Shown here piece by piece: positions 222 to 64,000 of a DNA stretch of 64,000 nt. The DNA comes from a phage, in NCBI GenBank assembly GCA_024686575.1, contig GCA_024686575.1_4863.1; one strand, 5' to 3'. The position numbers were made by a program, and so were the translations under genes. The notes beneath the pieces are model-generated. The model was not told the origin of the DNA. It saw only the letters and a list, made by a program, of their open reading frames with translations, and ran no database searches. Numbering within the stretch: position 1 is the first letter of the stretch; the number at the start of each line of letters is the position of its first letter.

Positions 222-259
222 GGAAAATAATAAACAGTATAGGGGCCGAAGCCCCTATA
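222..259 (-). terminator. rho-independent terminator (UUCG-loop hairpin plus U-run)
   Basis: Stem TATAGGGGC/GCCCCTATA with CGAA loop on plus (UUCG in minus-strand RNA), followed on the minus strand by a T-rich run. Confidence 0.6.
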
Positions 260-267
260 CGCTGTGT

Positions 268-2314: not shown

Positions 2315-2365
2315 GTAGACGTAATAAAAAAATAAGAAGCCTCTTCTCCCGGAGGAGAAGAGGGC
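2315..2365 (-). terminator. rho-independent terminator
   Basis: 12-bp GC-rich stem GCCTCTTCTCC/GGAGAAGAGGGC followed on minus strand by TTATTTTTTTATT. Confidence 0.7.
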
Positions 2366-10631: not shown

Positions 10632-10671
10632 GATAAAATAAAAAATAATAATAGGAGACCCGAAGGTCTCC
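10632..10671 (-). terminator. rho-independent terminator
   Basis: Hairpin GGAGACC-CGAA-GGTCTCC followed on minus strand by a long T/A-rich run. Confidence 0.65.
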
Positions 10672-15181: not shown

Positions 15182-15220
15182 TGAGCATCCCAGTAATAAT
15201 ACCAAAAGAATTATTCACGT

Positions 15221-15235
15221 AGATAATATCTATCT
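15221..15235 (-). promoter_or_regulatory. conserved motif 2 (plus AGATAATATCTATCT; inverted repeat AGATA-N5-TATCT)
   Basis: Exact 15-mer present four times in the window; here about 45 nt upstream of the ATG at 15181. Confidence 0.5.
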
Positions 15236-15286
15236 CAGATTACTTTGGGCACGGGTTCATACCCAGTGCCCGTAACGTAAAAAACT

Positions 15287-15985
15287 TTAGGGTATTAGGC
15301 GTTGGGCTATTTCGCGGAGTTGGTCGCGGGTTAAATCAGCCAACTTCTGGTCGCCGAAGCCCAACTTCAGACCCAGCTCGTACCCAGCTTGCGGATACGT
15401 GTTCGTGTTTGCTACTGAGAGGAGTGCATCGGCTATCTTTACCATCGTTAACTCGAGAGACGCATACGGGGCGGGGATCGGCTGATTCACGATTTGGTAA
15501 TTATAACGCACTGCGGCGTTATCGTAGTCAAACTCCATCCTTCTGCCGAGAACGTTAAACGACTCCGCAGAATAACTACCAAGTGGGTGATTGGCTTTTT
15601 CCCACAAATCTTTCCGTTCAGTAAACCCAGTCGCGAAGTTCTGACGTATGGTGTCGAATATTTGCGTTGCCTGGCTAGGGTGTATATTTTTCAGCTCATT
15701 GTAGTCGTAGTCGGCGATGGAATATAGAGTGAACACAACACCGTTTATATTTAACTGCGGATAATCCATCCGCAGACTGTCATCACCTTGTAAATGAAGT
15801 TCCCACATCCTTACCCACTGCAATATCGCGCTTACCGCATCGTGACTGAGATAAAAATTAGTAGGTTCTTCAGGATTTTCACGGAAGGGAACAGAGCATT
15901 CCGATACAAAAAAGCCGGCTGCCATAAATCCTCTGCCGTCGAACATAGGCGCAACTAATCTTGATTTTTCTAAATTGATTACCAT
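15287..15985 (-). CDS. hypothetical protein
   Basis: 232 aa; AAGGAG Shine-Dalgarno 8 nt upstream of ATG; preceded by the AGATAGATATTATCT motif and the terminator of the upstream gene. Confidence 0.7.
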   Translation of the reverse strand: MVINLEKSRLVAPMFDGRGFMAAGFFVSECSVPFRENPEEPTNFYLSHDAVSAILQWVRMWELHLQGDDSLRMDYPQLNINGVVFTLYSIADYDYNELKNIHPSQATQIFDTIRQNFATGFTERKDLWEKANHPLGSYSAESFNVLGRRMEFDYDNAAVRYNYQIVNQPIPAPYASLELTMVKIADALLSVANTNTYPQAGYELGLKLGFGDQKLADLTRDQLREIAQRLIP

Positions 15986-16025
15986 TACTGTCTCCTTAAG
16001 TTAAAACCGAACGACTCTCTCCCTA

Positions 16026-16040
16026 AGATAATATCTATCT
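16026..16040 (-). promoter_or_regulatory. conserved motif 2, copy downstream of the 766 aa gene terminator
   Basis: Exact 15-mer 41 nt upstream of the ATG at 15985, immediately after the terminator U-run. Confidence 0.5.
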
Positions 16041-16089
16041 ATAAATTTTTAGAAAAAAAGAAAAAGCTTACTCCCCGAAGGGAGTAAGC
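16041..16089 (-). terminator. rho-independent terminator after the highly expressed 766 aa gene
   Basis: Stem GCTTACTCC/GGAGTAAGC followed on minus strand by TTTTTCTTTTTTTC. Confidence 0.8.
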
Positions 16090-16120
16090 TAATCTTAGGC
16101 AACGTAATCCTTACGGATTA

Positions 16121-20535: not shown

Positions 20536-20543
20536 CGAACACT

Positions 20544-20561
20544 GGGGAGCTTAGGCTCCCC
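20544..20561 (+). terminator. hairpin after plus gene (weak terminator candidate)
   Basis: Stem GGGGAGC/GCTCCCC with TTAG loop 9 nt after the stop of 18973-20535; no clear U-run. Confidence 0.3.
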
Positions 20562-20851
20562 TACGGGCAGTTTATGCGTCCTGCCGAGATCAAAAAAAAT
20601 ACGACGAACTATTTATATGCGTGGAATTACCCGAGTGCTAGAACACTCGGGTATAATTATTCCAGGCAAATATTCCTGTTATCTCTTGTTGAGTATTATC
20701 TCACCTCCTAGTCCTTTAATGGTACGGGTGGAAGTCTGCGGTTGGCGGGTAACCTCTTGCAGACGTTGTTGAAAAGCGACTTGTTTCAGCTGTTGCTGAC
20801 GCAGTTGTTGCATAAAGGTATTCATGTTAACCTCTAGGTGGATGTGAATAA

Positions 20852-20890
20852 GCTCTCTCCTTCGGGAGAGAGCACCTTTTATTTTCTTTT
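20852..20890 (+). terminator. rho-independent terminator (plus strand)
   Basis: Stem GCTCTCTCC/GGAGAGAGC with TTCG loop followed by CCTTTTATTTTCTTTT. Confidence 0.65.
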
Positions 20891-20932
20891 CGGAAAATAA
20901 ATATAAAGCCCTCTTACCCGAAGGTAAGAGGG
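20880..20932 (-). terminator. rho-independent terminator (minus strand)
   Basis: Stem CCCTCTTACC/GGTAAGAGGG, UUCG loop in minus-strand RNA, T-rich run on minus strand; directly downstream of gene 20939-21799. Confidence 0.7.
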
Positions 20933-22228: not shown

Positions 22229-22264
22229 CCTTAGGCAAAAAATAATACCACCCGTAGGTGGTAT
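22229..22264 (-). terminator. rho-independent terminator
   Basis: Stem ATACCACC/GGTGGTAT followed on minus strand by TATTTTTTG; ends the three-small-gene operon. Confidence 0.7.
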
Positions 22265-22277
22265 TAAATTATCTATA

Positions 22278-22842: not shown

Positions 22843-22868
22843 TCACCTAGGTAATATATATCTGAAAT
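22843..22868 (-). promoter_or_regulatory. conserved promoter-like motif 1 (minus-strand reading contains TATATATTACCTAGGTGA)
   Basis: 26-nt exact repeat TCACCTAGGTAATATATATCTGAAAT shared with 31344-31369; lies between a terminator and the first gene of a small-gene operon. Confidence 0.55.
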
Positions 22869-22984: not shown

Positions 22985-23025
22985 AGGGCTAAAATAAAGA
23001 GACCTGGTCTCACAAGGAGACCAGG
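22985..23025 (-). terminator. rho-independent terminator
   Basis: Stem CCTGGTCTC/GAGACCAGG followed on minus strand by TCTTTATTTTAG. Confidence 0.65.
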
Positions 23026-23032
23026 CACACAT

Positions 23033-28561: not shown

Positions 28562-28599
28562 TAGCTGTCCCTCGTTGTAGTCATATCACTGGCCTAAAA

Positions 28600-28630
28600 C
28601 GCAAAAAAAAGAAAGGGAGCCGAAACTCCC
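28600..28630 (-). terminator. rho-independent terminator
   Basis: Stem GGGAG/CTCCC with CCGAAA loop, followed on minus strand by TTTCTTTTTTTT. Confidence 0.65.
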
Positions 28631-28638
28631 TTCGTGTT

Positions 28639-29892: not shown

Positions 29893-29928
29893 ACAATCCC
29901 AAAAAAGAAGGTGGCATGTTAGGCCACC
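29893..29928 (-). terminator. rho-independent terminator or attenuator
   Basis: Stem GGTGGC/GCCACC followed on minus strand by TTCTTTTTTGGG; next gene starts immediately after, so readthrough is likely needed. Confidence 0.6.
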
Positions 29929-29936
29929 TTATTAAA

Positions 29937-31343: not shown

Positions 31344-31369
31344 CTCACCTAGGTAATATATATCTGAAA
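31344..31369 (-). promoter_or_regulatory. conserved promoter-like motif 1, second copy
   Basis: Identical 26-mer, with partial conservation of the next 15 nt; located after the paralog-1 terminator and about 50 nt upstream of the ATG at 31302. Confidence 0.55.
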
Positions 31370-31385: not shown

Positions 31386-31426
31386 ACAAAAAAAGAAAGG
31401 GTAAATCCCCCACCGAAGTGGGGGAT
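31386..31426 (-). terminator. rho-independent terminator after paralog 1
   Basis: Stem ATCCCCCAC/GTGGGGGAT, UUCG loop in RNA, followed on minus strand by CTTTCTTTTTTT. Confidence 0.8.
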
Positions 31427-31438
31427 TCGCCAGTCTAA

Positions 31439-32714: not shown

Positions 32715-32735
32715 GGCGGTACGCCGTGTACCGCC
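32715..32735 (-). other. intergenic hairpin between the tandem paralogs
   Basis: 8-bp stem GGCGGTAC/GTACCGCC with 5-nt loop and no U-run, between the stop of paralog 2 and the Shine-Dalgarno of paralog 1. Confidence 0.45.
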
Positions 32736-34053: not shown

Positions 34054-34109
34054 TTGTTTCGGTTCCTTTGGTTATAACCCAATTACACGCCCCTAGATAA
34101 GGGGCCCCC

Positions 34110-40997: not shown

Positions 40998-41043
40998 AAA
41001 GCACTACCCTCTCCCGAAGGAGAGGGTAGCCTTTTATTTTATT
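40985..41043. terminator. bidirectional rho-independent terminator
   Basis: 11-bp stem CTACCCTCTCC/GGAGAGGGTAG flanked by A-run upstream and TTTTATTTTATT downstream, between convergent genes. Confidence 0.8.
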
Positions 41044-46435: not shown

Positions 46436-46490
46436 AACAAAAAAAGAAAGGCCTCTCTACCCTAGGGTAGAGAGGTACTTTTATTTAGCC
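46436..46490. terminator. bidirectional rho-independent terminator
   Basis: Palindromic stem CCTCTCTACCC/GGGTAGAGAGG flanked by A-run and T-run, between convergent genes. Confidence 0.8.
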
Positions 46491-49165: not shown

Positions 49166-49177
49166 TCATACCAAGGC

Positions 49178-49210
49178 GAATAAAAAAAAGAAAACGGGGC
49201 CGAAGCCCCG
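49178..49210 (-). terminator. rho-independent terminator
   Basis: Stem CGGGGC/GCCCCG with CGAA loop followed on minus strand by TTTTCTTTTTTTTATT. Confidence 0.7.
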
Positions 49211-51605: not shown

Positions 51606-52218
51606 TAGCCGCTTCCTCGGTTTCTACTACAACGTCATTGTGATCGACGATGGCGTTTTTAGGGAGTTCCTTCGAATTATTAGCCAGAGCTTCAGCCAAC
51701 AGAACTTCGGCTTGTTCCACGGTATGACCGTTATTCAGCGCCTGCTTCACGAACTTCACTTTCGCGTTATACGTGGAGAAGATTTCGATACTGGTGCCCT
51801 GAATATCCATCGCAAGCATGTTTGCCCGCTGGTCAATCAGGGACAGTTCGGTGTGGTCGACGTGGAACTGGTCTTTGATTTCTTTCCACGTTTTGCTGTT
51901 ATCGTTCAGCATGTCAAACACCGGCACAGCCTTAGCATCTGCCTCAACAATCAGTTTACCGAACAGCTCTTTGCCTTGCTGACACATGCCAAGGAAAGCC
52001 GCCTGTGCTTCATCCAGCGCTTTCAACGTAAAGGCTTTCAGCTCTTCGTGCGTAATGGCTTCAGTTACTTCACGCTCCCGATCAATTTTGCCTGACAGGA
52101 ATTCGGTACTTTCGATAAACACAGCTTGTTTTTTCAACACAGACTGCATCATCGCCTTGACGAAATCGCGGGCGTCTTTACGTGGGTTATAAGCGGGTTT
52201 CTTTTTGCGACGACTCAT
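51598..52218 (-). CDS. hypothetical protein with basic N-terminus
   Basis: Track ORF begins at a TTG (52260); ATG at 52218 (MSRRKKKPAYNPRK...) has an AAAGGA Shine-Dalgarno 9 nt upstream. Confidence 0.6.
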   Translation of the reverse strand: MSRRKKKPAYNPRKDARDFVKAMMQSVLKKQAVFIESTEFLSGKIDREREVTEAITHEELKAFTLKALDEAQAAFLGMCQQGKELFGKLIVEADAKAVPVFDMLNDNSKTWKEIKDQFHVDHTELSLIDQRANMLAMDIQGTSIEIFSTYNAKVKFVKQALNNGHTVEQAEVLLAEALANNSKELPKNAIVDHNDVVVETEEAANV

Positions 52219-52278
52219 CGTAATAATCCTTTTGAAATTAGGGGTTGGGTGTATACACAATATACACCCAAAACGTGA

Positions 52279-52662
52279 TTAACTTGCATCGTGTGGAACA
52301 GTCACCCAATCGTGCCATTTTTCAGAGTAAAGACGATAAGCCATCTTTGGATTCTGATCGACACTACCGGCCGGGTTCTCATTCCACAACACGTACGTAT
52401 ATAACTCGTACGACGAAGTGTTACGGATACTTGACGTGCGGGTGACGTAGTACGTCAACCCGCGTTGGTTAAGGAACAGGCCGCTGTAATGTTCAGTGAC
52501 CATGTAGTAGTGAAACGCCTGGTTGATAGTGGCGTCGGTACAGAGTTTCTTAGCGACGTCTTCTACGCCGGGATACGCCTTTAGAATGTTTTCGAGAAAA
52601 CTTGCTAAAGTCATTCCGATGTAGGGTGGCAGCGGCTCTGCTGGACGCGGCGGAGTGAGCAT
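52279..52662 (-). CDS. hypothetical protein
   Basis: 127 aa ORF with AAGGAA Shine-Dalgarno before ATG at 52662; overlaps the 3-prime end of the helicase ORF by about 113 nt in another frame. Confidence 0.5.
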   Translation of the reverse strand: MLTPPRPAEPLPPYIGMTLASFLENILKAYPGVEDVAKKLCTDATINQAFHYYMVTEHYSGLFLNQRGLTYYVTRTSSIRNTSSYELYTYVLWNENPAGSVDQNPKMAYRLYSEKWHDWVTVPHDAS

Positions 52663-55294
52663 GTGATTTCCTTACAACGTAGGGGGATGTCGCAATACGG
52701 AACGACAATACGACATCCTTGAGTGATTTCTGACGGGCATTCAGGTAATTGCAATGCTTCGGTACGTTATACGCATGGAATAACCACACCGTTGGGTCTA
52801 TTTCACCCCATTCGTTGTGGAGAATCTTACGTGGACGACCGGCCATCTGTTCGTTCAGTTGCTGGTCTTCTACCGGGGTTGAGATGTACATGTGTACCAA
52901 CCCAGGTTTATCGACCGCAGTCCCCGCTTTCCCCGGTGTGGAGATAGAGAAGTCTGCTTGGATAAAGTCGTCATACGAATCGCCTGCATTATATTTCGCC
53001 ACCATCAGTGGATGGAATACAGGGTCACGCGATAACTTATCTTTCACATACTCGGTAAAGAACTCACACATCGCTACCGTAGCAAAGAGTATCAAACATT
53101 TTTGGCCAGGCTGATACCGTTTAAGAAACGATTTCTCAACCACATCCCAGATCATGTTTGCGTATTCTAAATGCAAGTTCTCTTTAATCAGCTTCCCTTC
53201 GAAGAGCTTGTGGTTATACGGCGTCATCTTCGACGCCCACCACGCAAACTTCTTATCATCCAGTCGATAGTACAACGCCTTCACGTCAACCACCGGAATG
53301 ATTGGAATACTGATTCGGTACTCCATTGGGAAACGTTCTAAATACCGCTCCGCGATAAAGGCTTTACTGCTACCCGGCTTAAGAGTTGCAGACATCTCTA
53401 TCGATGCCGGCGGATTCAACATTATACCAGCCATGTAAACGAGGTGAAAATGCTCGTGCACCTCATCCATCGCCACCAGACCCACACCCAGAACATCATA
53501 AAACGTATCCAGGTCCACAGGGTTAGTCGCAGCAGTGTTAATGTACTCCTTCAGGAAACGCTGTAGAGAGACCGTGGGGAGGATTATTACCTTAATACCA
53601 CGACTATCTAGCTCTCCCGACTTACCCATCTCCAGTGCGTCGTAAATCGCCTGTACGCCTGTACAAACTAACACCTCGTCACGAAGTATACGAAGTCCTG
53701 TTTCATCATCACAGACGTCAAACAGCCATTTGGGAACGTACGACGGACGGTGAATCAATGCGGTACGGGTTCCCCGTTTAACCATCGACTTCATACAGGT
53801 CTTGGTGTTGTGCGTAACAATCCACTGTCCCAGAACGTACAGATGTTCATCGTTGTCGACAGTAATGCACGAACCATGACTCTTCCCAACATACACGATA
53901 GACTTAACACGGAGTTTCAGTGTATCGTTGTATTGACCGTTGTCGCGACACAGCGCTTTCTTACGCGGGAGGTTGAACAGCATTGAAGGTGTCTTGTGCC
54001 TAATGAACACCATATAAGCCAATTTACCTTCTCTACGTTCTCCTTTGTAAGTAAAGAACGGACGTTTTGTGGATATAGTTGCAATACCACCTAACGATCT
54101 CACCAACTCCTGGACGCCCAACGCCAGCGACTCGCTGGTGCTACAATACGACGGCTGCCCTCCATCTTTATTCACGGTTCCGTCCGTGTCCATTAAACCG
54201 CGCAGCAGCTCCCAGCGTTGCTCAATCGAGCCTTCAAAATATTCATCCGGAATATATTTTCTATCAGACCCTTTCCCTAGAAGACCGTGGTCCTGCAAAT
54301 AGAGCGGCCAGGACATCGGCACTTCACGTCTGCGACGACGCATTCTATACTGATAACGATCGGCGGGAACCATCTCGGTATCGTCAGGTAAATACTTCCT
54401 CACCAGCTCGACAGTTTCTGGATCGGCTGATGTGAAGCCTACCGCGCCATTTTCACAGGCGTGGCCGTTTCCCAAGAATGCCCCCATGAGATACGGATGT
54501 ATTTTAAAGCACTTTTCACTTGTCTCTTCCGGTTCAGGTAACGGAATGTAGACTCGCGGGTTCGGCATTGCAATCAGTCGCTGAATTTCTTCCGTACTTC
54601 TTACCTGCCACCGAGTGTTTGGTGTGGTATTGACGTAGTAGGATTGCCAGAGATGCTCTTTACCGACCACAGTCTTACGTCCGTCAGCAAAAGTTATCTC
54701 GTAAAAATCCCAATCTTCATGCGGGTACACCGCCGTCACATTCGTCGGCTTCCCATCCCTACCGATTACCACATCCCCGACTTCTAGCTCTCCATGTAAT
54801 TTCCACCCACCAGGAATCCTTACACGCTGATCCCATCTACAGACCTTTCCTCTTCCTGTTTGTATCGCGAAAACCGTTTGTGAACGCGATGGATCTGTTG
54901 CGGCGGCTACGACTTCATTCTGATAATAGAAACGCGACTCTGGGTCTGTTTCTTCCATCTTGAATCCGTAATTATCAAACGTGCACTTATAAGGTTCTGC
55001 ACGTTCAGGATGGTGCTCTGTTAGCTTGTACTGAAAAGCGTATTCAATTGCTGCTCGTTGGAGGATATGTTTAATCTTCTCAGCGAACACTTTATGGAAA
55101 ATGAACGTCCTTAAAGACGGAATGTGAGCGTAGTACGCGTCACCGCGTTCCGTAGTTATTCGTCCATGTTGCTTGCCCATCTTTGGGGCGTGCATATTCT
55201 CTTCGGCCCACGCGAGTATGGCCCTTTCAGCCTGGCGGATAGGGACTTCAACCCGTACCCCCATACTCGTGTAAGTCATTTGAATTTCTACCAT
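52550..55294 (-). CDS. DExH-box (SF2-type) helicase/ATPase interrupted by an intein
   Basis: 914 aa from ATG at 55294 (GAGG Shine-Dalgarno; track N-terminal extension rejected); Walker-A-like AIQTGRGKV, motif II AMDEVHEH, motif III SAT; about 345 aa intein inserted after GRGKV. Confidence 0.75.
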   Translation of the reverse strand: MVEIQMTYTSMGVRVEVPIRQAERAILAWAEENMHAPKMGKQHGRITTERGDAYYAHIPSLRTFIFHKVFAEKIKHILQRAAIEYAFQYKLTEHHPERAEPYKCTFDNYGFKMEETDPESRFYYQNEVVAAATDPSRSQTVFAIQTGRGKVCRWDQRVRIPGGWKLHGELEVGDVVIGRDGKPTNVTAVYPHEDWDFYEITFADGRKTVVGKEHLWQSYYVNTTPNTRWQVRSTEEIQRLIAMPNPRVYIPLPEPEETSEKCFKIHPYLMGAFLGNGHACENGAVGFTSADPETVELVRKYLPDDTEMVPADRYQYRMRRRRREVPMSWPLYLQDHGLLGKGSDRKYIPDEYFEGSIEQRWELLRGLMDTDGTVNKDGGQPSYCSTSESLALGVQELVRSLGGIATISTKRPFFTYKGERREGKLAYMVFIRHKTPSMLFNLPRKKALCRDNGQYNDTLKLRVKSIVYVGKSHGSCITVDNDEHLYVLGQWIVTHNTKTCMKSMVKRGTRTALIHRPSYVPKWLFDVCDDETGLRILRDEVLVCTGVQAIYDALEMGKSGELDSRGIKVIILPTVSLQRFLKEYINTAATNPVDLDTFYDVLGVGLVAMDEVHEHFHLVYMAGIMLNPPASIEMSATLKPGSSKAFIAERYLERFPMEYRISIPIIPVVDVKALYYRLDDKKFAWWASKMTPYNHKLFEGKLIKENLHLEYANMIWDVVEKSFLKRYQPGQKCLILFATVAMCEFFTEYVKDKLSRDPVFHPLMVAKYNAGDSYDDFIQADFSISTPGKAGTAVDKPGLVHMYISTPVEDQQLNEQMAGRPRKILHNEWGEIDPTVWLFHAYNVPKHCNYLNARQKSLKDVVLSFRIATSPYVVRKSHAHSAASSRAAATLHRNDFSKFSRKHSKGVSRRRRRR
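53807..54841 (-). mobile_element. intein with LAGLIDADG homing-endonuclease domain
   Basis: Starts with Cys after the P-loop and ends VLGQWIVTHN followed by Thr; LAGLIDADG-like motifs YLMGAFLGNGHA and LLRGLMDTDGTV; in frame within the helicase ORF. Confidence 0.7.
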
Positions 55295-55304
55295 GCTGCC
55301 CCTC

Positions 55305-55337
55305 TTCGCACAAAAAAAGAGGGGCGCAAGGCCCCTC
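55305..55337 (-). terminator. rho-independent terminator or attenuator between RNAP genes and helicase gene
   Basis: Stem GAGGGGC/GCCCCTC followed on minus strand by TTTTTTTGTG; helicase Shine-Dalgarno and ATG follow within about 12 nt. Confidence 0.65.
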
Positions 55338-55340
55338 GGT

Positions 55341-57446
55341 TTACAACTCAATTACCACAGCGGCTCCTAGGTCATCGTACAACGATGCCGGGATTTTGTA
55401 CTCGGTATAAAAACCAACGCGATCGATATTCCCCTGCTGTCCTTCAAACAACAACATCGGAATTGCCGAGCGCAAACTAATGAGCGTGTTGTGATCGACA
55501 AACCGTTTCCCTGTAGCGTTAGTAGAATCCTCACTGTCAAATCCTACTGCCGGGAACGGATTGGTTGGCGACTCTACACGAGATATCGCCAACATAATCG
55601 CAATGTGCGTCATCGGTATACCACTCAGCTTACGCTGGATATACTTAAACGTGTCCATCAACGCATAAGTACACTGTTTCTCTGTAGCACCACCCATTTC
55701 AACCAACGTCACCGGTTTCACACGACCTTGTTTCTTGTTCAGCTTCACAGTCGAGGCTGTGTTGATGATTTCCACAATGTCTTCGTTCTTATCGGCAGCA
55801 ATCGAACGGAGCTTGGTTTCTAAGCCGGCTACGAACTCCGCCATCGATTCAGAACGGTTGGTGTAGACCAGGACCGGGTGTTTCGGGTTCCATCCTTTTA
55901 AGGGGATTTCTACCGTCTTCTTCTCGATACGAATGTTCGCTCGTTGTTTCAAGAAGTAGTGCAGGAACGGTTTAGAGAAGTTCCCACAAACACCCATTCG
56001 CACATCGATAGAATCCGCAGCGATTATCTGCCCATCTTCTAAACGACGTTGGAAAGTTAAGTCGGTGATTTCTGGTAATGCCGTTTCATCAATTGCATCG
56101 AGATCTTCATGATACGCAATCTGGCTCAGCTCCGAATAAACTTTGTCGGTAACAACCAACTCGTATTCTGACCAATTCCCACGCTGTGGTTTTGGCAGCA
56201 AGCACAACCCTTTCAGAGAGTTATGTTTGTATTCGGTCATATACTCACGCATACGTGGGGTGAGTACCAGGTTGAGCAGATAACGCAAGAAGTCAAGGTG
56301 CTTGGTAGAGAGAATTCCCTGTGTACCCTTTTCCGAGATGGACGTGGATGCCAGGTGACCTGGTGACGTACCTTCAGAGAGGTTATAAATCAAATCCCCC
56401 ATACAGGTCGCACAGATGGACTGATTCGCCATCTCTTTACAGGTCATGGCACTACGGAAGACCAGCGGTTTGCCAACCAGGTCTGCGTATCCGCCTTTCT
56501 CAAATCGCAACCACGGACCATTATCGCCTTCTAAACGATAACGCATCCCCACCATCGCTTTATAGGCACGCTCATCCAGCTGCGTATCCTTAAACGTGTA
56601 GCGGTGTGCGTGTGTTGTACCGCAGTCGTCGTACGTGAAATACATCAGTACGTTTGCTGCCAGCTGCAGTTTACGTGAGGCGTATTCTGCTTCGGCAATC
56701 TTGTCAGTGTTGTACAGGTGGGAACGTGAAGTTGCACCAGATTCTTTCAAACGCGAAATAACCGAATGCATTCCGGTAAAGAAGCCTTCCCACACCTGAT
56801 TGGTGTATACACGTGAGTCAATTTCTGACGTTTTGCCGCGCACGAACGCTTGCAGTACCTGGTTCATCTTCACGGTACCGTCCAGTACCGACATTACGAC
56901 TGGGTTATACCGCAGCGCAGGGTCTTTGAAGATTTTCTCGATAAGCTTATACGCTTCTTCAACCATATCCTGACCATCTTCATCGTAGCCAGTAGGATAC
57001 TGCACTTCCCACTGACGGATGAGTTCGAAGTTCGGGTGGTCGTAGATCTCCATCATCGTATCAAAGTCGATTGTCGTACAATAGGACAGCAAGTTCTTCA
57101 CTGTCATGTTGAACGCATCGGCGTAGACATGTTGACTCAGGATATAACGCGTTTCAGCAAGGTCGACACCTGCTTTACGGGCCAGTACCGCTGCTTCCGA
57201 CATAAAGTCCAGATGCAGGTCATCTGTTGCTACCTGACCTGGACGATACGCCATGGTCGATGGAGTGGGCACCTGCGGATACAGACGCGACACACCCCAA
57301 TACGGCCAGCTGAGTTTGATGTGGCGACTAGACATTTCCAACGACTTACCATCGTCGAAAGTCACGTAATAACGCCCGCGTAGTTTCCACACCTGATCAG
57401 AGTTAAGCATACGCAAATCACGTACGTGTACAGAACGACCCGCCAT
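55341..57446 (-). CDS. multisubunit RNA polymerase beta-prime-like subunit, C-terminal part
   Basis: 701 aa; ASTSISEKGTQGILSTKH matches the beta-prime trigger-loop signature AAQSIGEPGTQLTMRTFH; preceded by a Cys cluster (C-x8-C-x2-C) as in the C-terminal Zn site of beta-prime. Confidence 0.7.
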   Translation of the reverse strand: MAGRSVHVRDLRMLNSDQVWKLRGRYYVTFDDGKSLEMSSRHIKLSWPYWGVSRLYPQVPTPSTMAYRPGQVATDDLHLDFMSEAAVLARKAGVDLAETRYILSQHVYADAFNMTVKNLLSYCTTIDFDTMMEIYDHPNFELIRQWEVQYPTGYDEDGQDMVEEAYKLIEKIFKDPALRYNPVVMSVLDGTVKMNQVLQAFVRGKTSEIDSRVYTNQVWEGFFTGMHSVISRLKESGATSRSHLYNTDKIAEAEYASRKLQLAANVLMYFTYDDCGTTHAHRYTFKDTQLDERAYKAMVGMRYRLEGDNGPWLRFEKGGYADLVGKPLVFRSAMTCKEMANQSICATCMGDLIYNLSEGTSPGHLASTSISEKGTQGILSTKHLDFLRYLLNLVLTPRMREYMTEYKHNSLKGLCLLPKPQRGNWSEYELVVTDKVYSELSQIAYHEDLDAIDETALPEITDLTFQRRLEDGQIIAADSIDVRMGVCGNFSKPFLHYFLKQRANIRIEKKTVEIPLKGWNPKHPVLVYTNRSESMAEFVAGLETKLRSIAADKNEDIVEIINTASTVKLNKKQGRVKPVTLVEMGGATEKQCTYALMDTFKYIQRKLSGIPMTHIAIMLAISRVESPTNPFPAVGFDSEDSTNATGKRFVDHNTLISLRSAIPMLLFEGQQGNIDRVGFYTEYKIPASLYDDLGAAVVIEL

Positions 57447-59683
57447 TATTTATCCTCCCGAATTGGACGCACTAATTCAAAACCTTCACAGCGATGGATG
57501 TTACGTATCATCCTGTCAATCTGCGAATCACCCATTGGCAGTTTCTTACGATCGACCAGCACCCCTGGATTGGTTGGTGTTGGCGAGTTATACAGCCCCG
57601 TTACGATCGCACGGTGTACCGCAGGGTTATTAGCGCGGTCATGAGTTTCGGGGAAGTTGCCCGGACCAAAGCCGTCGGTAAGACGCTGCTCGGAAGGACC
57701 ACCCCACTTCAACCCTTTCAGGTTAATCGGATATGAACCACGTCCTTGGTTGGATGCATCAATACAACCCAAATAGTTCGTGTACATCGACGAGATACTG
57801 GAGAACTCACGACCGGTTTTATCCAGGCGCAGAGTCTCTACCATGCCGACGTAAAACTGGTTCTTCGTCCACTCTTTCTCACCCTGATAGTTAGTAATCA
57901 GTAGCTTAGACTTGCGTGGTGCATACTCGCCTAGAGCACGGCAGATTTCTACCTGGGTAGCATTCAATTCGTGGGGAAGCCAGATACGAATCGTGAAGTC
58001 GTAAATCTCTTTAAAGAGTTCCAGACGTGACCCAGTATCCGGGTGACTGGCATTGAGATAGAATGTCCAGCGTGGGTTATAGCGATCGATATAGTCCATC
58101 AGGATTTCCCAGGCTTCATCAACCTGGTTGGCGGCAAGTAAAGGTTTCAACCGCATCTTCAACTGCTCGGATGCAGCAGACCAATACATGTGGAACAGCG
58201 CAGCATAAGTCGAACGACGAATTACGGCGTTCATGGAACGAATGACATGCACACGTTCTCCGAACTCGTTAATCGGCATTTCTTCATCAGGCCGCACTGC
58301 GCCCACGATACCTTTTGTACCTGAACGGTCGGTGATTTTCGATGAGACGGTAACTGGGATTGGATAACGTACCACGATGCGTATCGTGTAACTACCAATT
58401 GGGTCCCAGAGACCACGCTGAACCGGCTGCGCCAGTTTGTTTAACACGTTCTTATCAGCAGAACGGTTATACTCGCCTTTACGCATGGCTTCATCGTATT
58501 CACGACCAATCTCTTCACGGAAGTCGTTATAGACTTCATACGTCTCAGAACAGAACGCCTTGTCAAGAATCTCAAACGCTTTCGGTGACCAGACGATATT
58601 CTTGTCCTTGGACATCGCAAAATAGAACCGTACGATATCATTGTAAAAACGTTTCAAAGCGTTCGCGTAGTGATCTAACTCGCGTTTGTTCTCTTCGGTA
58701 CATGCGATATTGTTAACACCACGATCGCATTTGGTTTCGTCCCGCCATACCTGAATATCAACGACACGAGAACCGGTACGTTCCATCTTTTCAAAGTCGC
58801 CAGCCAGTCGCGCTTTGTAATGCTCAGGGTCGGCATCAACATACTCACAACGGTCGAAGTGCGGAGAGACATGTTGTGTTTCACCTACGTGCGAGTCAAT
58901 GGCTGCCCATAGCTTATCGAAACGGCGCGCGGCAATAACCAACCCATCATCACGAATTGCCTGTCCTTTATTGGGCAGGTACTGTGGTCGACGAACGCCA
59001 TCAATACCCGTTGTCCCATACGTATCAAGCAGGTACTCGTCGTCGCGCAAGGTAAAGTCGATTGCACGCAAACCATAAGCGTGCATCGCTTTCGCTGCAG
59101 TTTCGGAGATGGTGTACGAGTCCTCGATAATGTCCGGGTGCGACATCGTCACGGTGTGCAGGTTGACCCCATCGACAAACTCACCGTCTTTCTGTGCCGG
59201 CAGCACGGTAAGCATTTCATCTTTTTCCAGGTGCTGCGTCTGCCCGCGCAGCAACGCCTGAAGTTTCCCAGTAGCCTCTTTCTTAGACGAGAAAATGTTA
59301 TCGTGGTTGGTGTAATACTTAATATCGATTACATCAATCATCACTTTGCGCTGGTTGGTTAAATCTGCGCGCGTGAAGAAGATAACATGTTGGAGCGGTT
59401 CGTGATCCCCTTCACGACCATAGCGTGCAAAAACAGCTGCACGAGTAACACCTTCTTTGGTTGTGTAACTGCACACGGTACCACTGTCTTCCACGATATC
59501 GTTAAAACAATAATCGTGGTAGTTCACATCAGCGCCGGTAAAATGGATAGTCGGATCTGGATTGTCCAGTGGTACCGCCGACTTCATATGTCCACCCACC
59601 ATTGAGGCACGTGCCCCAGATACGCCAGTGATATTCACCTCACGGTCAGCAACGCTTGACATGAGTTCGACTGGTGTTTTCAT
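57446..59683 (-). CDS. multisubunit RNA polymerase beta-like subunit, C-terminal part
   Basis: 745 aa; ITDRSGTKGIVGAVRPDEEMP matches the beta signature [20 protein letters not shown]; C-terminal GGPSEQRLTDGFG resembles GGQRFGEMEVWA; stop overlaps the start of the beta-prime-like gene. Confidence 0.7.
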   Translation of the reverse strand: MKTPVELMSSVADREVNITGVSGARASMVGGHMKSAVPLDNPDPTIHFTGADVNYHDYCFNDIVEDSGTVCSYTTKEGVTRAAVFARYGREGDHEPLQHVIFFTRADLTNQRKVMIDVIDIKYYTNHDNIFSSKKEATGKLQALLRGQTQHLEKDEMLTVLPAQKDGEFVDGVNLHTVTMSHPDIIEDSYTISETAAKAMHAYGLRAIDFTLRDDEYLLDTYGTTGIDGVRRPQYLPNKGQAIRDDGLVIAARRFDKLWAAIDSHVGETQHVSPHFDRCEYVDADPEHYKARLAGDFEKMERTGSRVVDIQVWRDETKCDRGVNNIACTEENKRELDHYANALKRFYNDIVRFYFAMSKDKNIVWSPKAFEILDKAFCSETYEVYNDFREEIGREYDEAMRKGEYNRSADKNVLNKLAQPVQRGLWDPIGSYTIRIVVRYPIPVTVSSKITDRSGTKGIVGAVRPDEEMPINEFGERVHVIRSMNAVIRRSTYAALFHMYWSAASEQLKMRLKPLLAANQVDEAWEILMDYIDRYNPRWTFYLNASHPDTGSRLELFKEIYDFTIRIWLPHELNATQVEICRALGEYAPRKSKLLITNYQGEKEWTKNQFYVGMVETLRLDKTGREFSSISSMYTNYLGCIDASNQGRGSYPINLKGLKWGGPSEQRLTDGFGPGNFPETHDRANNPAVHRAIVTGLYNSPTPTNPGVLVDRKKLPMGDSQIDRMIRNIHRCEGFELVRPIREDK

Positions 59684-59713: not shown

Positions 59714-59728
59714 AGATAATATCTATCT
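59714..59728. promoter_or_regulatory. conserved motif 2 in divergent intergenic region
   Basis: Exact 15-mer between the RNAP beta-like gene start (59683) and the plus gene start (59750); could serve either or both. Confidence 0.5.
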
Positions 59729-63203: not shown

Positions 63204-64000
63204 TTAAGAATTAAACCATTCAACTTCTTCTAACTTGCGACGTGCATTCAACACCATAAACTCCGCCAGGCTATTGTGCAGTGACAAGTGAGGTATATAG
63301 TTTGGCTGATCCGTCTCACACTTCAGCAGCGCAGCTGCTTCTGGTGTAGCCCTGAGATGGAACAGATACGGGTTGATGTGATCCTTGTGTAACAAGGTCA
63401 GTGATTCCCGTGGTGTAGATTGCGGTTCGAGATTACGCGGGTTGCGATACTCCTGAAGATAATATCTATCTAAATCTGCTTTGAGTTCAGATCGAATTGG
63501 GTCGGCTGCATAACCGGCAGACATCTCAGAACGCACCATATTGCAACTTAACAGTTGCGCAACGTCATACATTCCATAATTGAGATAAGTTGCCTGTGCT
63601 AACGCCATGCCGTAGCGAAACGCTTCTGGTCCACATTCGGTATACGTCTTATAATGCGCGCTACGATGGAGTGCTAATGCGACTAACCATTCGTGGAGCG
63701 TATAGACAGGACCGTCGTGTGTTGCCAGTTGCGAATCAATCAATAACTTAACATCTGCTGGAGCGGCATTATCCAGGCGCATTGTTTTCAAGAAAGAGCG
63801 GTATTCTTTAAATACGTACTCGGTACGGACGTATTCTTTCATCTGGGCAGGAGAACGTGCCTGCACCAAATCCATGGCGTTTATCTTACCCTTTTCGCCA
63901 TTGAATATCACACTTTCTGGATGCGCTTTTAACAGCACCGGCTGGTTAGAGATTTTGTTTGCAAAACCTGTTTCAATCTCTTGTTTAACCAGAAAATACA
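63204..64000 (-). CDS. hypothetical protein, 5-prime partial (continues beyond window end)
   Basis: Track ORF starts at a GTG at 63938, but the frame stays open to the window end; contains an internal copy of the AGATAGATATTATCT motif. Confidence 0.55.
   Translation of the reverse strand, partial: YFLVKQEIETGFANKISNQPVLLKAHPESVIFNGEKGKINAMDLVQARSPAQMKEYVRTEYVFKEYRSFLKTMRLDNAAPADVKLLIDSQLATHDGPVYTLHEWLVALALHRSAHYKTYTECGPEAFRYGMALAQATYLNYGMYDVAQLLSCNMVRSEMSAGYAADPIRSELKADLDRYYLQEYRNPRNLEPQSTPRESLTLLHKDHINPYLFHLRATPEAAALLKCETDQPNYIPHLSLHNSLAEFMVLNARRKLEEVEWFNS
63457..63471 (-). promoter_or_regulatory. conserved motif 2, intragenic copy
   Basis: Exact 15-mer inside the coding sequence of 63204-64000 (encodes DRYYL), about 270 nt upstream of the next gene start at 63191. 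Confidence 0.35.

Follow-up and report, generated by a model that had tools for sequence, protein, structure and literature searches.

Probable intrinsic terminators, many with UUCG loops and of two strength classes, in an SPN3US-like jumbo phage

Tuerk et al. are said to have described, in 1988, C(UUCG)G hairpins of phage T4 that lie between cistrons and in terminators. It was in T4 mRNA that hairpins with a UUCG loop first attracted attention (PMC4371310). In the phages phiKZ and 201phi2-1, 133 and 132 termination sites have been mapped, respectively, many of them intrinsic and built on a uniform stem-loop motif (PMC10914365, PMC11512511). The phiKZ motif, BCCYCCCCHWWDGGGRRGGBYTTATKYYGT, accounts for 61 of the 133 sites, and its 201phi2-1 counterpart is known as motif A (PMC10914365, PMC11512511). 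Since a drop of 20% or more in reads was the criterion for a phiKZ site, partial termination is documented there (PMC10914365), and longer stems terminated better in vivo (PMC10914365, PMC11512511). The activity of terminators of 201phi2-1 was measured with the host polymerase (PMC11512511). A further known case is the terminator T-phi of phage T7, a native hairpin which is described as adapted to be inefficient (PMC9157156).

The stretch of DNA analysed here (the window; 64,000 nucleotides of contig GCA_024686575.1_4863.1) is about 96-99% identical to SPN3US, SEGD1 and JN03, i.e., it derives from an SPN3US-like (Seoulvirus) jumbo phage of Salmonella. Its non-coding share is 3.4% (2193 nt of intergenic DNA), and all hairpins with a GC stem that we considered lie in this share; an independent recount arrived at 18, the number given in a preliminary description of the same DNA. 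Their stems have 6-13 bp with 4-7 G-C pairs, their loops 4-7 nt, and a U-rich sequence occurs within 15 nt past the stem on the sense strand in 17 of the 18 (the exception is T6; in T12 and T6b the U run starts 3-4 nt past the stem). The GC stem with a short loop, the U-rich tract on its 3' side and the position past a stop codon or between convergent genes are those of canonical factor-independent (intrinsic) transcription terminators, and it is very likely that the hairpins terminate transcription as such. Scans for Rfam families and for tRNAs gave no match, and no transcriptome data for SPN3US-like phages or the SPN3US-Erwinia jumbo clade were found in the literature searched. The hairpins are:

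237-260, minus strand: T1, terminator, 10 bp, UUCG; TATG at 208-211
2340-2363, minus strand: T2, terminator, 10 bp, UCCG loop
9975-9998, plus strand: T3, terminator between convergent genes, 10 bp, UUCG on the plus strand
10654-10671, minus strand: T4, terminator, GGAGACC-UUCG-GGUCUCC and a U/A-rich tail
16065-16090, minus strand: T5, strong terminator after the major capsid gene, 11 bp, cUUCGg, U4CU7
20544-20561, plus strand: T6, hairpin after a DnaB-like gene, UUAG loop, without U tract
20852-20873, plus strand: T6b, terminator, 9 bp, UUCG on the plus strand, back-to-back with T7
20909-20932, minus strand: T7, terminator, 10 bp, UUCG
22243-22266, minus strand: T8, terminator, UAAUACCACC-UACG-GGUGGUAUUA and U6, 24 nt to the next ATG (22218)
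23002-23026, minus strand: T9, terminator, 10 bp, CUUGU loop
28612-28633, minus strand: T10, terminator, GAAGGGAG-U(UUCG)G-CUCCCUUU and CU8; TATG at 28582-28585
29908-29930, minus strand: T11, terminator, AAGGUGGC-CUAACAU-GCCACCUU and CU6, 18 nt to the next ATG (29889)
31403-31428, minus strand: T12, terminator, 11 bp, UUCG, followed by a promoter-like motif at 31351-31365
41003-41030, minus strand: T13, bidirectional terminator between convergent genes, 12 bp, UUCG on the minus strand
46451-46476, no single strand: T14, bidirectional terminator between convergent genes, CUAG palindromic loop
49195-49210, minus strand: T15, terminator, CGGGGC-UUCG-GCCCCG and U4CU8
55319-55337, minus strand: T16, terminator between the beta'-like gene and the helicase gene (the site flagged in the preliminary description), 7 bp, CUUGC loop
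60075-60105, minus strand: T17, terminator between convergent genes, 13 bp, UGGGC loop

Nearly all of these loops had been described as UUCG, which holds for 10 of the 18, with two more carrying another UNCG loop (UCCG, UACG), but not for the remaining six, among them the flagged hairpin itself (UUAG, CUUGU, CUAACAU, CUAG, CUUGC and UGGGC). Perfect-stem TTCG tetraloop hairpins number nine, plus one with a U.G closing pair (T10), all within the 2193 nt of intergenic DNA, whereas 100 dinucleotide shuffles averaged 0.12 such hairpins and never exceeded two. The loop is closed by a C-G pair, c(UUCG)g, in nine hairpins, and not in T10 (U.G), T16 or seven others. That the loop reads UUCG in the RNA of the preceding gene, as previously proposed, was found at all seven clear co-directional UUCG sites, and across the whole SPN3US genome a same-strand open reading frame lies upstream of 21 of 23 UUCG terminators. 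Among 60 strand-specific hairpins of terminator type in the whole of SPN3US, about 23 carry UUCG. At the capsid-gene terminator (orthologues of T5), c(UUCG)g is invariant in 18/18 loci (14 distinct sequences), with compensatory double changes at 8 of 9 stem pairs; 100% of the alignment cells are paired, which none of 500 shuffles matched, a percentage that is inflated by the selection of the alignment for at least 8/9 pairs around TTCG, although all 18 loci passed. At T4 (four genera), T12 and T15 (five genera), UUCG is likewise conserved while the stems covary across 4-5 genera. The UUCG loop itself is thus under selection at the RNA level.

The inverted repeats could instead act as DNA, as protein-binding palindromes or recombination hotspots, and the T16 sequence, which is invariant without structural covariation and holds one 7-mer in three copies, would be in line with this. 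However, UUCG is strand-specific (CGAA is never enriched on the sense strand), the U tails lie on the sense strand, the stem changes are compensatory, and a GAGGGGC hairpin with a T tract stands at terminator positions in many unrelated phages, which makes a role at the DNA level highly improbable. An alternative at the RNA level is that the hairpins are stabilisers or processing stops at 3' ends, where exonucleases would trim transcripts 3'-to-5' up to the UUCG hairpin and the resulting half-life would set expression ratios. The exceptional stability of the UUCG tetraloop (PMC4371310), the strong selection for UUCG over any other loop, the 3'-5' exoribonuclease and the ribonuclease annotated in SPN3US, and the conservation of T6 and of the X1/X2 hairpins despite their lack of U tracts all speak for such a role. 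On the other hand, a pure stabiliser would not need the immediate 3' U-rich tail that 17 of the 18 hairpins have, nor do the bidirectional hairpins at convergent gene pairs, with tails on both strands, agree with it. We therefore regard stabilisation in place of termination as unlikely, but the two roles are not mutually exclusive.

In comparison with T4, the hairpins in the window share the extra-stable UUCG loop with a C-G closing pair, the intergenic position on the sense strand, often within intrinsic terminators, and the setting of a large virulent phage. The two systems differ in that T4 is transcribed by the host RNA polymerase, whereas the SPN3US-like family has its own non-canonical multisubunit RNA polymerases and a phage nucleus; moreover, UUCG makes up approximately 40-55% of the terminators here and GNRA loops are absent. 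With phiKZ and 201phi2-1 the window shares the virus family lifestyle, the short GC stem, often of pyrimidine and purine runs, the A-interrupted U tract (TTAT-like tails occur here too) and bidirectional terminators at convergent gene pairs; those two phages are documented to show partial read-through. Nevertheless, the phiKZ consensus had no match in the window at up to 3 mismatches, the loop here is UUCG or another UNCG instead of the A/U-rich HWWD, and the polarity of the arms is mixed. About ten of the window hairpins are pyrimidine-first and seven purine-first, and a uniform arm polarity was dropped as a design feature for this reason. Hairpins of this kind are, overall, already known from the CUUCGG hairpins of T4 and the uniform terminators of phiKZ and 201phi2-1.

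The uniform design that had been proposed was not borne out, since the hairpins fall into two strength classes, with T16 being atypical. Where the next start is no more than 56 nt away, the hairpins have a mean folding free energy of -12.5 kcal/mol, versus -17.9 kcal/mol for those at convergent ends or before promoter-like motifs (Mann-Whitney p=6e-4), values that come from a nearest-neighbour model for general RNA, to which phage RNA polymerases may respond otherwise. The strong class (10-13 bp, -17 to -23 kcal/mol) is found at convergent gene ends, before conserved promoter motifs and after the capsid gene. The weak class (6-8 GC-rich bp, in T8 10 AU-rich bp; about -12 to -14 kcal/mol) adjoins the next Shine-Dalgarno sequence inside strings of genes; strength is judged here from free energies and tail sequences only, and limited space alone could account for the shorter stems. 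We envisage that the nascent RNA would fold into a GC-rich stem, mostly with a c(UUCG)g or UNCG cap, and that the U-rich tract would weaken the RNA-DNA hybrid such that the polymerase, presumably one of the phage's own multisubunit virion and non-virion RNA polymerases, releases the transcript. The hairpin would afterwards cap the 3' end of the released mRNA. Long stable hairpins would close transcription units, also behind strongly expressed genes, the major capsid gene among them, while the weak ones would most likely stop only a fraction of the polymerases, leaving downstream genes such as the helicase gene to lower expression through read-through.

The recurrence of hairpins that abut the next gene, a main element of the preliminary description, was only partly recovered. 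The four sites cited besides T16 are real and all on the minus strand (T4, T8, T11 and T15). The arrangement holds for T4, T8, T11 and T16 (gap of 18-40 nt without a promoter-like motif), but not for T15 (cited as 49178-49210), which lies 56 nt from the annotated start with a conserved TATG in the gap. At T4 the next ATG (10613) is 40 nt away. Between terminator and Shine-Dalgarno sequence at T4, T8, T11 and T16 no promoter motif was found, and the gap is too short for one; the promoter-less abutting layout of T4, T11 and T16 is conserved across genera. Given that there is neither room nor motif for a promoter before the next Shine-Dalgarno sequence, the genes after T4, T11 and T16 would be reached by read-through. 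Terminators directly abutting a Shine-Dalgarno sequence are also common in unrelated phage contigs.

The promoter-like features near other hairpins are:

16026-16040, minus strand: promoter-like motif AGATAGATATTATCT, 25 nt downstream of T5
15221-15235, 22849-22863, 31351-31365, 59714-59728 and 63457-63471: other copies of the promoter-like motif
49167-49170, minus strand: TATG motif between T15 and the next gene start (49138); (G)TATG(A/T)A conserved in five genera

The promoter-like motif represented by AGATAGATATTATCT has seven matches against 0.89 expected and is conserved in relatives; in the form AGATA[G/T]ATATTA[T/C]CT it lies downstream of T5, T9 and T12, where it is conserved as well. 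A TATG motif follows T1, T10 and T15, and the one at 49167-49170 is a candidate late-type promoter of the nvRNAP by analogy with phiKZ, which has a TATG promoter (PMC4666361). Upstream of gene starts, TATG has 13 matches against about 7-10 expected, a count that is not significant, and consequently it is the conservation across genera (T1, T15) and the phiKZ analogy that carry its reading as a promoter. A generic sigma70 promoter scan gave 22 matches compared to 23.2 in shuffles and hence no sign of host-type promoters after the terminators. A terminator followed by a conserved promoter-like motif, the arrangement which the preliminary description had itself set against its proposal of partial terminators, is thus present at several sites. 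That proposal fits T4, T8, T11 and T16, which lack a promoter and, near the next start, have weaker hairpins, but not T1, T5, T9, T10, T12 and T15, which precede promoter-like motifs. Overall, the earlier observation is partly confirmed and its interpretation partly supported; the weak terminators before the next gene probably leak. In this they resemble T-phi of T7, which lies among co-directional genes and reduces the expression of the distal ones without shutting it off; there, the polymerase is single-subunit and the efficiency was measured, while here we infer it.

At the flagged site (minus strand, 55295-55340, TAA-ACC-GAGGGGC-CUUGC-GCCCCUC-U7-GUGCGAA-GAGGGGC-AGC-AUG), a terminator indeed stands between the beta'-like gene and the helicase Shine-Dalgarno sequence, with the hairpin ending 14 nt and the U tract 7 nt before the latter. 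The hairpin, of 7 bp with six G-C pairs and followed by U7, starts 3 nt past the stop of the beta'-like gene (55341-57446). The helicase start at 55294 agrees with the conservation of the N-terminal protein sequence from this ATG. The junction comprises:

55331-55337, minus strand: segment 1, 5' arm GAGGGGC, equal to the helicase Shine-Dalgarno sequence, invariant in 15 distinct relatives
55326-55330, minus strand: loop CUUGC, 13 different loops in 15 distinct relatives
55319-55325, minus strand: segment 2, 3' arm GCCCCUC, able to pair with segment 1 (terminator) or segment 3 (Shine-Dalgarno)
55312-55318, minus strand: U7 tract
55298-55304, minus strand: segment 3, helicase Shine-Dalgarno sequence GAGGGGC, 6 nt before the ATG at 55294

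The attenuation implied in the preliminary description would, in its classical sense, mean that a translating ribosome, a ligand or a protein decides whether a terminator or an antiterminator forms ahead of the helicase gene and other genes. A terminator does precede these genes without an intervening promoter, the upstream stop lies 3-7 nt before the T16 hairpin such that a terminating ribosome could mask the 5' arm, and for 201phi2-1 an antitermination mechanism was suggested by the authors of its study as one that may exist (PMC11512511). However, no upstream helix competes with the hairpin, and the sole alternative, between segments 2 and 3, uses sequence transcribed past the U tract; the 3-7 nt between stop and hairpin leave no room for a leader open reading frame, neither a leader peptide nor an Rfam family of known riboregulators was found, and transcription and translation are spatially apart once the nucleus forms, SPN3US and Asesino being known to build a phage nucleus that parts the two (PMC13282480). 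We thus consider classical attenuation very unlikely; the weaker hairpins near gene starts fit leaky internal terminators and not ribosome-coupled attenuation. The likeness of T16, and of T16 only, to the trp and pyrBI attenuators and to riboswitch platforms is that one segment enters two exclusive helices, one a terminator and the other hiding the Shine-Dalgarno sequence. The differences are the lack of a sensor (leader peptide or aptamer), an alternative helix that lies downstream of the terminator and cannot prevent termination, and the lack of transcription-translation coupling in the phage nucleus.

What T16 might be, tentatively and with less than even probability, is a two-state RNA in which segment 2 takes one of two partners, either segment 1, which gives the terminator, or, once the polymerase has read through, segment 3, which hides the Shine-Dalgarno sequence; A/G residues beside segment 3 would pair with the U tract, and the AUG would also be hidden in some lineages. 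Two settings would in that case determine how much helicase is made, namely the share of transcripts that read through and the equilibrium of one helix with the other. Across 15 distinct sequences, which come from 22 loci with a beta' C-terminus that is 51-100% identical, neither arm changes (14 nt together), while the loop occurs in 13 versions and the spacers vary; every other orthologous terminator in the same genomes has a fixed loop and stem covariation. Segment 2 is complementary to the helicase Shine-Dalgarno sequence in 15/15 distinct relatives, and these invariant pairs permit no covariation test and supply no covariation support. Segment 3 reads GAGGGG in 14 of 15 relatives, the predicted ensemble prefers the 2:3 helix in 12 of 15 (P of at least 0.78; probability of an unpaired Shine-Dalgarno sequence 0-0.16), and a UUCG loop occurs in a single relative of the 15, in the lineage with a degenerate segment 3. 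Terminators with this stem are frequent in unrelated phages as well (at least 120 matches), with GAGGGG within 30 nt downstream of it in only 1 of 81, which is itself a member of the SPN3US-like clade. Transcription in the phage nucleus would moreover let the read-through RNA equilibrate before meeting ribosomes.

Against a two-state T16, the isolated helices are only 0.1-3.5 kcal/mol apart in most lineages, mostly within the error of the model, one lineage (L023) favours the terminator helix by 6 kcal/mol, and three sequences of the Kwan/Wellington clade have a 12-bp terminator stem that is the predicted winner. In addition, a purine-rich Shine-Dalgarno sequence is by nature complementary to any CCUC-type arm, and the apparent pairing of the loop with the AUG region does not hold consistently from lineage to lineage. 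Covariation of the T16 loop with the helicase AUG region gave long helices in some lineages (loop CAUGU versus CAUG) and inconsistent results elsewhere, and is not claimed. Searches for more distant beta'-helicase junctions returned the same clade only, both by tblastn (62 records, at least 52% identity) and in an IMG/VR scan (18 loci). If true, the two-state RNA would explain the frozen stem, the drifting loop and the avoidance of the otherwise favoured UUCG.

None of these results overturns the current understanding. Together they provide a sequence-based map of transcription-unit boundaries for the clade of SPN3US and Erwinia jumbo phages, which tells apart strong terminators, leaky internal terminators and two classes of promoter-like motifs. 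Being compact, conserved and of graded strength, the terminators offer parts that engineering can use directly. The family as a whole shows selection for the c(UUCG)g cap, including phages that use their own non-canonical RNA polymerases, which suggests that these enzymes follow the same hairpin-plus-U-tract rule as the bacterial enzyme. The frozen three-segment T16 is a candidate element for controlling dosage after transcription in a phage that forms a nucleus; if the two-state reading is true, the helicase dosage would be fixed by an RNA folding equilibrium, and not by coupled translation, in a ribosome-free nucleus-like shell.

By megablast, the window is from a jumbo Salmonella phage of the SPN3US group (genus Seoulvirus), with ~96–99% identity to SPN3US, SEGD1, JN03 and others and an orientation reversed relative to the deposited records. 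The SPN3US annotation corresponds to it gene for gene, mostly on the minus strand. An exhaustive hairpin scan and the folding of every intergenic gap detected 18 intergenic GC-stem hairpins (T1–T17 and T6b), among them the four sites that the preliminary description had listed besides T16, the hairpin between the beta'-like and helicase genes. The coding fraction is 96.6%, and all 18 are confined to 2193 nt. A TTCG tetraloop on a perfect stem was found in 9 of the 18, compared to a mean of 0.12 and a maximum of 2 in dinucleotide-preserving shuffles (n=100), while in T10 a U.G pair closes a tenth UUCG loop. T2 (UCCG) and T8 (UACG) have further UNCG loops, and the remaining six read UUAG, CUUGU, CUAACAU, CUAG, CUUGC and UGGGC. 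The enrichment proposed earlier is thus strong and real relative to the shuffles, but "nearly all" is an overstatement (10/18 UUCG, 12/18 UNCG), and T16 itself is an exception. The placement of UUCG in the RNA of the preceding gene was confirmed, as loop and T-rich tail lie on that gene's strand at 7/7 unambiguous co-directional UUCG sites. In the complete SPN3US genome, assembled from six fetched pieces for a genome-wide count, 60 strand-specific terminator-like intergenic hairpins were detected at ~49 sites (23 UUCG, 26 UNCG, no GNRA loops), and a same-strand ORF precedes 21 of the 23 UUCG hairpins. Rfam and tRNA scans found no family or tRNA overlapping the hairpins.

Based on the stem, the short loop, the U-rich tail, the position after stop codons and the presence of two tails where genes converge (T3, T13, T14, T17), we conclude that the 18 hairpins are intrinsic terminators of an ordinary, known type. 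The sequence 3' of each orthologous stop codon was compared in the syntenic regions of STsAS (a divergent Seoulvirus), Asesino (Erskinevirus), Kwan (Wellingtonvirus) and CR5 (Derbicusvirus). T4, T5, T12 and T15 retain the UUCG loop in four to five genera, on stems with compensatory substitutions. For T5, which follows the major capsid gene, c(UUCG)g occurs in 18/18 added IMG/VR loci, the hairpins being located by a TTCG enclosed by at least 8/9 pairs, a threshold that all loci met. Among 14 distinct T5 sequences, both partners have changed in 8 of the 9 stem pairs, all cells are standard pairs, and no shuffle or slid register approached the observed pairing. As judged from these alignments, the RNA structure of the hairpins is under selection.

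The CUUCGG hairpin pattern of T4 mRNA was reportedly described in an original paper of 1988. The hairpins of the window show the same pattern as these extra-stable T4 hairpins (PMC4371310). ONT-cappable-seq identified 133 termination sites in phiKZ, 61 of them with a common stem-loop-TTAT motif, and 132 in 201phi2-1, where longer stems terminate better (PMC10914365, PMC11512511). The uniform terminators of both phages parallel those described here, although the phiKZ consensus was not found in the window. A single A or C interrupts most U tracts of T1, T2, T4, T6b, T7, T9, T13 and T14 after 3–5 U (YUUUUAUUUU or UUUCUUUU), resembling the TTAT element behind the phiKZ stem; the weak, abutting T8, T10, T11 and T16 have uninterrupted U6–U8 tracts. 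SPN3US has its own annotated 3'-5' exoribonuclease and ribonuclease (L169 39064-41297), which may bear on the preference for extra-stable 3' hairpins. T6b (20852-20873, plus strand) and T7 (20909-20932, minus strand) form a back-to-back pair of UUCG terminators with opposite polarity; the 35 nt between them hold an A/T-rich palindrome. No plus-strand gene lies immediately upstream of T6b; the end of a DnaB-like gene is ~300 nt off, beyond a small minus-strand ORF.

Conserved promoter-like motifs occur behind several terminators. The 15-nt motif AGATA[G/T]ATATTA[T/C]CT, usually followed by GGTGA, gave seven hits (one an overlapping plus-strand match at 15217) against 0.89 expected, with six minus-strand copies:

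15221-15235, minus strand, motif copy
16026-16040, minus strand, motif copy
22849-22863, minus strand, motif copy
31351-31365, minus strand, motif copy
59714-59728, minus strand, motif copy
63457-63471, minus strand, motif copy

It lies 25–140 nt past T5, T9 and T12, and copies also precede gp190, small-gene clusters and the RNAP beta gene. Most relatives keep it past the capsid terminator, and it is also conserved in Erwinia and Cronobacter relatives. It likely represents a promoter class and, by analogy with the long, well-conserved AT-rich early motif of phiKZ (PMC4666361), possibly an early one used by the vRNAP. A second motif, TATG(A/T), occurs 21–35 nt 5' of several start codons and past T1, T10 and T15, and its copies at T1 and T15 persist across genera amid drifting flanks. 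In phiKZ, TATG is the late promoter, with the start site at its G (PMC4666361). Since the count alone shows no enrichment (13 against ~7–10 expected), the TATG sites remain candidate promoters. At 49178-49210, one of the abutting arrangements proposed earlier, a terminator (T15) is indeed present, but with the TATG motif behind it the order is better read as terminator, promoter and gene.

The major capsid gene and the gp190 homologue are separated by an additional ORF of 232 aa (15287-15985, within 15206-16120, minus strand), which SPN3US lacks and which has no Pfam match. The promoter-like motif AGATAGATATTATCT flanks it at 15221-15235 and 16026-16040, as if duplicated by the insertion, and Asesino and Kwan also have extra ORFs at this locus. 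SPN3US gp206 (591 nt; L002 1048-1638) is absent from the window, where ~28562-28638 holds T10 and then the TATG motif, and gp194 is seemingly missing near 20540-20680. Two conserved hairpins without U tracts, X1 (32715-32735, minus strand) and X2 (34089-34105, minus strand), lie directly upstream of the SDs of two internal-head-protein genes. X1 abuts AGAGGA and covaries across genera (GGCGGUAC.., GGGGGUGG.., GAGGGGCC..), and X2 (GGGGGCCCC/GCCCCU...AGGGGC) hardly varies; both may serve to stabilise the 5' UTR or act as processing sites.

T16 lies between two genes whose earlier labels (beta'-like, helicase) proved correct, based on Rpb2_6 and Rpb1_5 matches and the SPN3US helicase annotation:

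57446-59683, ORF with an Rpb2_6 (beta) match
55341-57446, ORF with a weak Rpb1_5 (beta') match
52550-55294, minus strand, annotated DNA helicase ORF

The helicase ORF encodes 914 aa, compared to 568 aa in SPN3US, and residues 151–496 form a 346-aa insertion directly behind the Walker A GRGK. The insertion keeps the reading frame and, given the homing-endonuclease domain of LAGLIDADG type within it (Pfam E=9e-10), is intein-like. The Kwan helicase is similarly long, and JN03 and EC001 match a larger share of the 52000-58000 query than SPN3US, which would fit their having the insertion too.

On the minus strand the T16 interval reads TAA ACC GAGGGGC CUUGC GCCCCUC UUUUUUU GUGCGAA GAGGGGC AGC AUG, i.e., a 7-bp hairpin (6 G-C pairs) starting 3 nt past the beta' stop, with a U7 tract and a CUUGC loop outside the UUCG/UNCG set. 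As first described, it is close to the helicase SD, which follows 14 nt past the hairpin and 7 nt past the U tract. In 15 distinct sequences from 22 loci, with 51–100% identity at the beta' C-terminus, the arms GAGGGGC and GCCCCUC are invariant, while the loop takes 13 different sequences among the 15 (UUCG in only one) and the spacers vary. All other terminators examined in these genomes show the opposite pattern. In 14/15 the SD of the helicase reads GAGGGG, with C or U next in most, so that it repeats the 5' arm and is complementary to the 3' arm over its full length. The alternative helix of 3' arm and SD, extended by pairs between neighbouring A/G residues and the U tract, has 7–10 bp and is predicted by ViennaRNA at -13.6 to -16.7 kcal/mol versus -12.9 to -15.1 for the terminator helix. 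It dominates the predicted ensemble of the read-through RNA in 12/15, with the SD almost fully paired; in three sequences of the Kwan/Wellington clade the terminator stem is extended to 12 bp and predicted to be favoured. GAGGGGC-N4-5-GCCCCUCU(U/C)UUUU is widely used as a terminator by unrelated phages, with at least 120 hits in IMG/VR and TTCG as the most frequent loop, but GAGGGG followed within 30 nt downstream in only 1 of 81 inspected instances, and that one belonged to this clade. Our preferred account of the invariance, tentative, at less than even confidence and based on conservation and thermodynamic prediction, is that the 3' arm may be obliged to pair with two partners, one of them fixed by ribosome binding, which would freeze all three segments. 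Against this, invariant pairs permit no covariation test, and the energy differences between the helices lie mostly inside model error.

The hairpins had also been taken to imply attenuation. Many unrelated phage contigs have a terminator leading straight into an SD. SPN3US and Asesino form a phage nucleus that keeps transcription apart from translation (PMC13282480), and no upstream antiterminator, leader ORF or sensor was found, making attenuation in its classical form unlikely. The terminating polymerase would, by analogy with phiKZ, be the phage enzymes. Partial termination is plausible for a weak subclass of the hairpins, and wrong where a hairpin is followed by its own promoter motif. 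T4, T8, T11 and T16 lie 18–40 nt from the next start with neither promoter-like motif between, so the downstream genes would be reachable by read-through only; other genera share this layout at T4, T11 and T16. The six hairpins at most 56 nt from the next start are weaker (-11.6 to -14.4 kcal/mol, mean -12.5) than the other twelve (-14.3 to -22.8 kcal/mol, mean -17.9; one-sided Mann-Whitney p=6e-4). Such leaky terminators are known from other phages, for example T-phi of T7 (PMC9157156). Together, the promoter-less abutting sites and the weaker hairpins near starts support what the earlier interpretation had at its core, leaky terminators inside the operons that lower expression stepwise.
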